The translations under genes and the position numbers were made by a program. This document shows, piece by piece, positions 10,022 through 11,202 of a DNA stretch of 64,000 bases. The stretch is from Wolbachia endosymbiont of Ctenocephalides felis wCfeF (lineage in GTDB: Bacteria > Pseudomonadota > Alphaproteobacteria > Rickettsiales > Anaplasmataceae): the NCBI GenBank assembly GCA_028571325.1, contig CP116767.1:89150-153149 (forward strand). Direction: 5' to 3'. Below the pieces are notes generated by a model that saw nothing but the letters and a program-made list of their open reading frames with translations, had not been told where the DNA came from and did not search any database. Positions within the stretch are counted from its first letter, which is position 1, and each line of letters begins with the position of its first letter.

Positions 10022-11005
10022 ATGCCAGGATCATTCACAGGAAGATCAACTACTGATAGTGGAGTAGATAATCAAAGCTTGAAAAAGTCAGCTTCTCAAG
10101 AGACAGTATTTGATAAACCTTGGGATAGTTATGATATTGGTAACCAAGAGAAGACAAACAGATTTTGGCAAAAGACGAAATATCTGATGATGAAGAAGAA
10201 AGTTATAGTGCCTTTCGTAGGTTTTGCTACGATGTGTTGTACTATGGCAATCGCCTTGAGTGTGCAACAAAAAGGATTTATTGGATTCATTGGCAGCGTA
10301 AATCCTGTTACTATATTTGGCGGGGTATTAGCCTCTTGTTTAGTCTTGGGAATTATGTGGGAACTTATACAAGCAGTTCGTACTAAGGAGCATAAGATTA
10401 AAGAAAGAGATACTCAAAAAGTTTTAAACGAGGTACTAAATACACTTCCAGAAGACAAATGCATCAAGTCTTTGATATTAAAATATAGTAACGGTAACCG
10501 CATTTATTTTACGTTTCATTCTCTTCAAGGACAAGAAAAAAATAATGCGAGCATTGTAGAACTTATAGGACAGCCAATCTGTTACAAGAGTAAAGTAAAT
10601 TCATTAGTCAATGATAGACTATGGCTTCCTATTTTAAGCACAGTTCTTATTACTGGAAGCATAACCTTCCCTTTAACACTATATTCAACAGGTGGTTTGA
10701 GTAATATAGTAAATTTATATACAAATCCTACCATTTACTGGCCAGTCATTGCAATTTCATGTACTCTACTGCTTTTCACTGTAGTTTGTGCCCTTCATCA
10801 TTGGAACAAAACTGATTTTAAAGATTATTTGTTATTACATAAACAAGATGCTAGCAGTGAAAAACTTAATGAAACATTTATCGAAGTTGTGAAAGAAAGT
10901 CAGAAGGAGATTAGTTCAAAGTTGTTACAAGCAACGAACAGACAAAGTCTGTTAAACCCTGAAAGAAACTCCACTACTTCTGTTTTTAGCAGTCTTGAAG
11001 TATAA
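10022..11005 (+). CDS. lineage-specific polytopic membrane protein; the last ~25 codons are supplied by the left end of the IS110 element
   Basis: Two pairs of hydrophobic segments. From ~10926 the reading frame runs through sequence duplicated exactly at 32331-32410 as part of the IS. Confidence 0.6.
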   Translation: MPGSFTGRSTTDSGVDNQSLKKSASQETVFDKPWDSYDIGNQEKTNRFWQKTKYLMMKKKVIVPFVGFATMCCTMAIALSVQQKGFIGFIGSVNPVTIFGGVLASCLVLGIMWELIQAVRTKEHKIKERDTQKVLNEVLNTLPEDKCIKSLILKYSNGNRIYFTFHSLQGQEKNNASIVELIGQPICYKSKVNSLVNDRLWLPILSTVLITGSITFPLTLYSTGGLSNIVNLYTNPTIYWPVIAISCTLLLFTVVCALHHWNKTDFKDYLLLHKQDASSEKLNETFIEVVKESQKEISSKLLQATNRQSLLNPERNSTTSVFSSLEV

Positions 11006-11202
11006 TTTTGTGGAAGCGCTTTTGCAGTTATAACCGACCAGCACAATGGTGCCTTAAGTGCCCGTATACAAGCATGGTTTTGGAAGGAACGGTTAAACCA
11101 TTGATGGAGTCCTTGTAGACTACCTCGTTTAGAAGATTGTATAATCTAACCGCTCCAAGCTAAAGTGCTTCTACATTATAAATTATATAGGGGGAACTTG
11201 AT
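10932..11202 (+). ncRNA. candidate IS110 bridge (guide) RNA region in the 5' leader
   Basis: ~270-nt non-coding leader upstream of the recombinase, the position of bridge RNAs in IS110-group elements. It contains internal copies of both element termini: tacaagca at 11067-11074 and ttagaag at 11129-11135. No structure was computed. Confidence 0.3.

Follow-up and report, generated by a model that had tools for sequence, protein, structure and literature searches.

The study window, a stretch of 64,000 nt on contig CP116767.1 of the complete, 1.45-Mb genome of the Wolbachia strain wCfeF (all positions are counted from the start of the window), contains a near-identical pair of regions, 10926-12552 and 32331-33957, each of 1627 bp and with three differences between them. 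The pair belongs to an insertion sequence (IS) of the IS110 family that is present genome-wide in 20 full copies, at least 99.7% identical to one another. Each window copy carries an intact open reading frame (ORF) for a DEDD recombinase, the stop codon of which ends 3 bp short of the right end, and a 271-nt non-coding region lies upstream of the gene. An earlier reading of the sequence, referred to here as the original prediction, had proposed that two short motifs in this leader echo the termini of the element, in the manner of a bridge RNA with a programmable target guide. In this report, we present evidence that the region at about 11010-11174 very probably encodes the bridge (seek) RNA belonging to an active, ISWpi13-related element of the IS110 family, and we describe how its guide segments correspond to the junctions of the element within the genome and across its family.

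The recombinase is recognized by PF01548 (DEDD_Tnp_IS110; 70 bits against a cutoff of 29), by PF02371 (Transposase_20; 45 against 21) and by the NCBIfam model NF033542, 'IS110 family RNA-guided transposase' (283 against 140), and its residues D19, E66, D103 and D106 are invariant in 13 relatives. Of the relatives that bear a name, ISWpi13-type transposases come closest, at 87% identity. The IS110-family elements of Wolbachia, ISWpi13 among them, have been described before (Cerveau et al. 2011, PMC3205602), and the present element resembles them in its transposase and in having many copies per genome; in contrast, the wCfeF copy family has its own left target guide (LTG, ATACA) and right target guide (RTG). 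The papers that were searched draw no connection between bridge RNAs and the IS110 elements of Wolbachia.

Scanning one genome per species, we collected 80 orthologous loci, with recombinases 46-61% identical to the Wolbachia one, from cyanobacteria, Chloroflexota, Acidobacteriota, proteobacteria and others; when the sequences upstream of these genes are aligned with the Wolbachia leader, conserved blocks alternate with short hypervariable segments. A covariance model built from 71 of these orthologues, with the Wolbachia sequence left out, matches the 64-kb window only at 11006-11172 and 32411-32577, and the match in the leader is full length (89.5 bits, E 1.9e-23), so the fit to a bridge-RNA model anticipated by the original prediction was found with a model that owes nothing to the Wolbachia sequence itself. 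Searched against the whole genome, the same model returns exactly the 20 IS copies, and of 59 other Wolbachia genomes, 16 contain further copies that it detects. The homologous RNAs also share a covarying structure. The RNAalifold consensus contains three helices with compensatory changes, and when 87 distinct sequences are aligned by the model, 98.4% of the cells are paired, against 84.4% with shuffled partners and 32-46% with slid partners, with compensatory, both-side change at 13 of 19 pairs; in helix SL-B such change is seen in six of nine pairs. Automatic helix finding on MAFFT columns did not resolve P1 and P3b. Because the length of P1 and P3 varies too much for counting by column, these two helices were tested by an alignment-free comparison of cognate with non-cognate duplexes: cognate P1 strands have a duplex energy of -19.6 kcal/mol against -10.5 for non-cognate ones, and cognate P3 strands -15.6 against -9.8 kcal/mol, with a median rank of 3 out of 72, while an unrelated strand pair used as a control showed no effect.

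Both echoes fall on programmable positions of this RNA. In the definitions of Durrant et al. (2024, PMC11208160), the LTG has the sense of the left target (LT) plus the core, and the left donor guide (LDG) that of the right end plus the core. The first echo, ATACAAGCA at 11066-11074, repeats the left junctions of the element and contains the LTG; the second, TTAGAAG at 11129-11135, repeats the right termini at 12546-12552 and 33951-33957 and is the LDG. Strings and coordinates had both been given exactly, and LTG and LDG sit at two hypervariable positions of the otherwise conserved RNA. The accompanying caution, that matches of 7-9 nt can arise by chance in AT-rich DNA, was well placed for the shorter motif: TTAGAAG occurs 15 times in the window where 16 occurrences are expected, about 0.035 are expected per leader, a further copy lies inside the ORF at 11224, and the match is not significant alone. 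The longer motif is different, being expected about 1.1 times in 128 kb of shuffled window sequence (both strands) and about 0.002 times per strand of a 277-nt leader. Because the 7-mer alone is not significant, a family-level test of the guides was needed, in which the 7-mer at the same alignment position of each of about 70 orthologues was sought at that element's own ends. At 41 of 61 loci the LTG-position 7-mer is found again 240-360 nt upstream of the start codon (permuted guides, 2.1 +/- 1.4), at 56 of 67 the LDG-position 7-mer is found again no more than 65 nt from the stop codon (permuted guides, 5.0 +/- 2.0), and the junctions defined by these guides give element lengths of 1610-1810 bp. 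The core covaries between the two guides across the orthologues as well, being AG in both in 56 sequences and AA in both in 16, the AA group forming one clade. That the echoes are accidental and the leader an ordinary 5' untranslated region is an explanation to which we assign practically no weight. The unremarkable frequency of the 7-mer and the modest minimum-free-energy fold of the leader (10926-11202, z = -2.65) would suit it, but in most of 70 orthologues the segments at these two alignment positions agree with the element's own junctions, and neither the rarity of the 9-mer, nor the covarying structure, nor the score of the covariance model is expected of chance. The coordinates of the guides and of the other features are collected in Table 1.

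Table 1. Features of the IS110-family element and its predicted bridge RNA in the window
Feature	Position	Strand	Basis or remark
Left target half-site (LT), host DNA outside the IS	10925..10929	+	Varies between copies that are otherwise >99.7% identical
Core dinucleotide AG, left copy	10930..10931	+	Invariant in 20 copies
Right donor (RD), first left-end bases CAACG	10932..10936	+	RD+1 and RD+2 match RNA bases 11073-11074
Left-end hairpin AACAGAC aaa GTCTGTT	10937..10953	+	Flagged by a scan; palindrome of different sequence at the same place in most orthologues and in Wolbachia relatives
Segment X (GTTAAACC)	10951..10958	+	Same-sense repeat in the RNA at 11092-11099
Left arm of subterminal inverted repeat (AAGAAACTCC)	10963..10972	+	Reverse complement of 12538-12547 with one mismatch (9/10)
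Candidate -10 box TATAAT, just 5' of the RNA	11001..11006	+	Inferred from alignment: TAnnnT-like element kept at this position
Predicted bridge RNA gene, ~165 nt, closed by P1 (11010-11022 / 11162-11174)	11010..11174	+	Covariance model match 11006-11172; duplex test
Predicted target-binding loop: P2 (11032-36 / 11075-79), internal loop, SL-A (11047-52 / 11060-64)	11032..11079	+	RNAalifold; 98-99% of cells paired; compensatory changes
RTG, CCAGCAC	11038..11044	+	Complementary to core G + right target (RT)
LTG, AUACA + AG	11066..11072	+	Same sense as LT + core
Handshake-like extension CA	11073..11074	+	Equals first two left-end bases
Predicted donor-binding loop: P3 (11086-95 / 11147-56), SL-B (11102-11 / 11118-27)	11086..11156	+	Duplex test
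Donor-loop 5' strand (GUUAAACC), possible fourth guide	11092..11099	+	Same sense as left-end segment X
LDG, UUAGA + AG	11129..11135	+	Same sense as right end + core
IS110-family DEDD recombinase, 448 aa, ORF intact	11203..12549	+	PF01548, PF02371 and NF033542 matches
Right arm of subterminal inverted repeat (GGAGTTTGTT)	12538..12547	+	Pairs with left arm
Left donor (TTAGA) + right AG core, IS end	12546..12552	+	Copy comparison
Second IS copy in the window	32335..33957	+	RNA at 32411-32577

Comparison of the genomic copies defines the element's ends and the target that it uses. The left junctions read tTACAAGCA (10925-10933) and aTACAAGCA (32330-32338) in the window. Across the 20 copies the four bases before AG are TACA in 15, TACT in three, TAAA in one and TCCC in one, the base at -5 is A in 18, and the left AG and the terminal AG are invariant in all 20, while the other 1621 bases differ by no more than 0.3%. 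An empty-site contig of 3376 nt in run X2, one of the public sequencing runs, all of which were examined as assembled contigs only, joins position 10928 to 12550, skipping 1621 bp with 3 nt common across the joint, and the empty site reads ...GTTGT TACAAG TAGTTGC...; the insertion at the window locus is polymorphic among related Wolbachia. The varying flanks of the copies and the X2 empty site together show that TACA belongs to the target, that the element proper spans 1621 bp and that its core is AG. The TACAAG that the original prediction had noted at both left junctions is there as described, but the element starts at 10930/10932 and not at 10926, and the proposed AAG-type core must be abandoned: it arises because ATACA, at the left target, and TTAGA, at the right end, both happen to end in A, and three copies have TACT-AG. 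The junctions of all 20 genomic copies, which the original prediction had suggested comparing with the guide, are compatible with the LTG, so that guide and junction correspond within the genome as they do across the family. ATACAAG itself occurs 376 times genome-wide, of which 13 occurrences are at IS left junctions, 20 are the guide gene and 343 are unoccupied; five of the unoccupied sites have at least four of six right-side matches to the RTG.

A third segment of the RNA, the RTG, corresponds to the other half of the target. Over the family it makes 126 pairs with the right target against 92 +/- 7 for permuted guides (0 of 2000 permutations as high), a further family comparison gives z = 6.8, several orthologue loci have perfect matches of 7-8 nt, and at column 11044, which faces the core G, elements with an AG core have C and those with an AA core have U. 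The two bases that follow the LTG match the start of the left end: RD+2 is identical to RNA column 11074 in 85% of family loci (mutual information, 1.25), and Wolbachia relatives carry CA or CG there, in each case in agreement with their own RD. Among 18 distinct Wolbachia relatives of the RNA, 79-97% of the scaffold is shared, yet there are 14 different LTGs and as many RTGs, and the LTG of these relatives matches its own left junction perfectly in ten cases and with one mismatch in four. These comparisons of related sequences show natural reprogramming of the target segments among close Wolbachia relatives.

The near-identity of the copies, at least 17 independent flanks, the intact ORF and the empty-site allele in another sample indicate recent mobility. 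Three IS copies stand in a row at G000:C1:1195385-1200479 (loci L013-L015) with the same 30-nt left flank and a spacing of 1733-1735 bp; they are a tandem amplification of the IS with about 107 bp and not three insertions. This array, together with the weak right-target matches in the wCfeF genome given below, would be in keeping with an RNA gene that is real but belongs to an element immobile in this genome, its copies having been spread by recombination or tandem amplification. We consider that account very improbable, because at least 17 different flanks among the genomic copies all carry an LTG-type left half-site, the copies hardly differ, the ORF is intact in both window copies and an empty-site allele of the same locus exists elsewhere. 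A direct circle junction (right end-AG-left end) was not seen in the assembled contigs of public runs. Run X2 contains a joint from 12552 to 10926 with one extra A (...TTAGAAG-A-TACAAG-CAACG...), at depth 5 where the flank has depth 8; this looks like two head-to-tail copies divided by a perfect ATACA-AG target rather than a circle junction, and its depth suggests a genomic tandem in that strain. Several orthologue loci (L088:1278-3053, L065 and L102) have two RNA genes 1.6-2.3 kb apart. At L088, from Mycoavidus, the 12 nt after the right end are the start of the left end, and the locus is, as judged from its sequence, a head-to-tail dimer with a junction identical to the expected circle junction. 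In addition, the left flank at G000:C1:801016 (...CCTTTTTAGA) is followed by TACT-AG in the wCfeF genome and by TGCA-AG in run X4; therefore, the target-derived bases at one locus differ between strains.

The element also has symmetry at the DNA level. A subterminal inverted repeat has its arms near the two ends, and the arms covary in orthologues (for example ACTAAC/GTTAGT and AGGAACT/AGTTCCT). In the left end, the core-proximal bases are followed by the hairpin, then by segment X (10951-10958) and then by the left repeat arm. The left repeat arm (GAAAGAAAC, 10962-10970 and orthologues) is the best-conserved DNA motif of the left end outside the RNA, and a second, variable hairpin lies between this arm and the RNA start. 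Segment X recurs in the same sense on the 5' strand of the second loop of the RNA: over the family the mean longest match between the two is 4.35 nt against 3.24 +/- 0.10 in permutations, matches of at least 6 nt are found at 13 of 72 loci where 1.5 are expected, and the relation partly covaries among Wolbachia relatives. The Wolbachia element and loci L029, L023 and L077 have a split match, AACG|GUUAAACC, to the left end on both sides of the hairpin; as a family feature we rejected this split match, which was not significant (6.56 against 6.09 +/- 0.38). The same-sense match of segment X is not predicted by the IS621 pairing rules and would put both donor contacts on one DNA strand.

It could be argued from these features that the echoes themselves act as DNA, as extra recombinase-binding sites or operators in the left end, and not as RNA guides acting in trans. 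The inverted repeat and the hairpin do give the ends a DNA-level symmetry, the repeat of segment X does not follow from RNA pairing as known from IS621, and the RNA itself is a predicted transcript. However, the ATACA echo copies host target DNA, which is not expected of an internal copy of a protein-binding end; compensatory changes maintain the helices in which the variable segments lie, a mark of selection on RNA folding; the third segment complements the right target and is not identical to it; and relatives of the protein family experimentally need such an RNA (PMC11208160, PMC11187229). A purely DNA-level role for the echoes is in our judgement quite unlikely, and we retain the bridge RNA as the explanation of the leader.

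Several observations weigh against the bridge RNA reading and are gathered here. The similarity of the IS621 recombinase to the Wolbachia recombinase is marginal (E 9e-4), and Thr334 (12202-12204) aligns with the IS621 nucleophile Ser241 only in a weak pairwise alignment (domain E 1.4) that is possibly shifted; at the position so aligned, 11 of 13 relatives have Thr and two have Ser. A sigma-70 scan of the + strand found no promoter ahead of the RNA and no good -35 element before the candidate -10 box. A scan of the region against Rfam returned only chance matches at E > 1 and nothing relevant up to E 10, although a bridge-RNA family may simply be absent from the Rfam library. The agreement of the RTG with the right flanks in the wCfeF genome is weak (2.35 of 6 against a background of 1.61, p ~0.003), and with the right flanks of single copies of Wolbachia relatives it is not significant (33 against 29 +/- 4). 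Finally, four types of search found no right donor guide (RDG), the complement of core plus RD. Contiguous complements of core plus RD, mutual information of single columns with RD, 5-mers compared at five offsets with G-U pairs permitted, and the longest runs of complementarity or identity that join four RNA segments to the four half-sites all gave nothing above permuted controls. A conserved UG after the LDG, at 11138-39, that could pair with RD+1 and RD+2 was dropped as a candidate, since the third position does not follow in about 30 orthologues inspected by eye.

The element shares a large part of its organization with IS621, for which the handshake concept and the core rule (second T invariant, first base variable) have been set out by Hiraizumi et al. 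(2024, PMC11208158) and the recombinase structure is available (PDB 8wt6). In both, an RNA of about 165-177 nt lies in a long left end upstream of a DEDD recombinase; of its two internal loops, the first serves the target and the second the donor; the guides share the core dinucleotide, which in the Wolbachia IS is the same in the guides, at both element ends and in the target; the bottom-strand guides have the same sense as LT plus core and left donor plus core; and, once exchange has taken place, the partner DNA is read by a 2-nt extension. On the opposite strand the two cores become CT and TT, in keeping with the invariant-second-T rule. In contrast to IS621, the order in loop 1 is reversed, with the RTG (11038-44, top-strand) 5' of the LTG (11066-72, bottom-strand); the core is AG on the gene-sense strand, and the searches revealed no RDG complementary to core plus RD; a 10-bp subterminal inverted repeat and a left-end hairpin are present; the candidate promoter is internal to the left end and does not span the junction; and the protein, only marginally similar, has 448 aa rather than 326 aa.

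Some of these differences are likenesses to the IS1111 family, whose seekRNA elements ISEc11, ISKpn4 and ISPa11 were described by Siddiquee et al. (2024, PMC11187229). IS1111 seekRNAs have the top-strand complement first, and the elements have subterminal inverted repeats and a 3-bp right extension (PMC11187229). Similarly, the Wolbachia element has a subterminal inverted repeat, a 3-bp extension, AGA, between the right arm and the core, a top-strand complement 5' of the bottom-strand match in its RNA, and natural reprogramming of the target segments between close relatives. Unlike the typical IS1111 element, in which the non-coding region is downstream of the gene with 'a few' upstream exceptions (PMC11187229), the Wolbachia element has its RNA and non-coding region upstream of the recombinase gene, and it is one of the IS1111-type upstream exceptions. 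It further differs from IS1111 elements in that 31 bp, and not about 7 bp, separate its left arm from the core, with the hairpin and segment X between, and in that its RNA has a second, donor-matching loop.

In the model that our data support, the outer stem P1 encloses two stem-loops, each with an internal loop. Loop 1 would bind the target through CCAGCAC on its 5' strand and AUACAAG on its 3' strand, the latter continuing with CA as a probable handshake-type contact with the product junction, and loop 2 would bind the donor through UUAGAAG on its 3' strand. The RNA-bound DEDD recombinase would then bring the circle junction TTAGA-AG-CAACG to chromosomal ATACA-AG-N sites and exchange strands at AG. 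Transcription, protein binding and the chemistry of this RNA-recombinase system we infer only by analogy with IS621, ISEc11 and ISEc21. For the donor side we can offer a tentative and rather doubtful proposal, namely that the Wolbachia element and the approximately 100 sampled relatives with an AG or AA core represent a third guide-RNA architecture of the IS110 family, combining an upstream RNA, the IS1111-type guide order and inverted repeat, and a same-sense donor segment that replaces the RDG. In such an architecture 11092-11099, equal to the left end at 10951-10958, would read the right donor half across the conserved DNA hairpin, looped out, and, if this were true, the two donor contacts would share a single DNA strand of an extruded junction. 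Given the missing RDG, the hairpin of the left end and the same-sense repeat of segment X, the way in which this clade recognizes its donor appears still to need an explanation.

Bridge RNAs in IS110-family elements are by now textbook knowledge, and the basic finding is ordinary in that NCBI already labels the protein an RNA-guided transposase. Wolbachia, in turn, has so far resisted genetic transformation, and a native RNA-guided recombinase that appears to have been recently active, as seen in 20 near-identical copies and an empty-site allele, is a candidate Wolbachia tool and also a marker of strain history. Its target code is readable as ATACA-AG with a loose right half. More broadly, the mixed layout of an upstream, IS110-type RNA with IS1111-type guide order and inverted repeats bears on the relation of the two groups.

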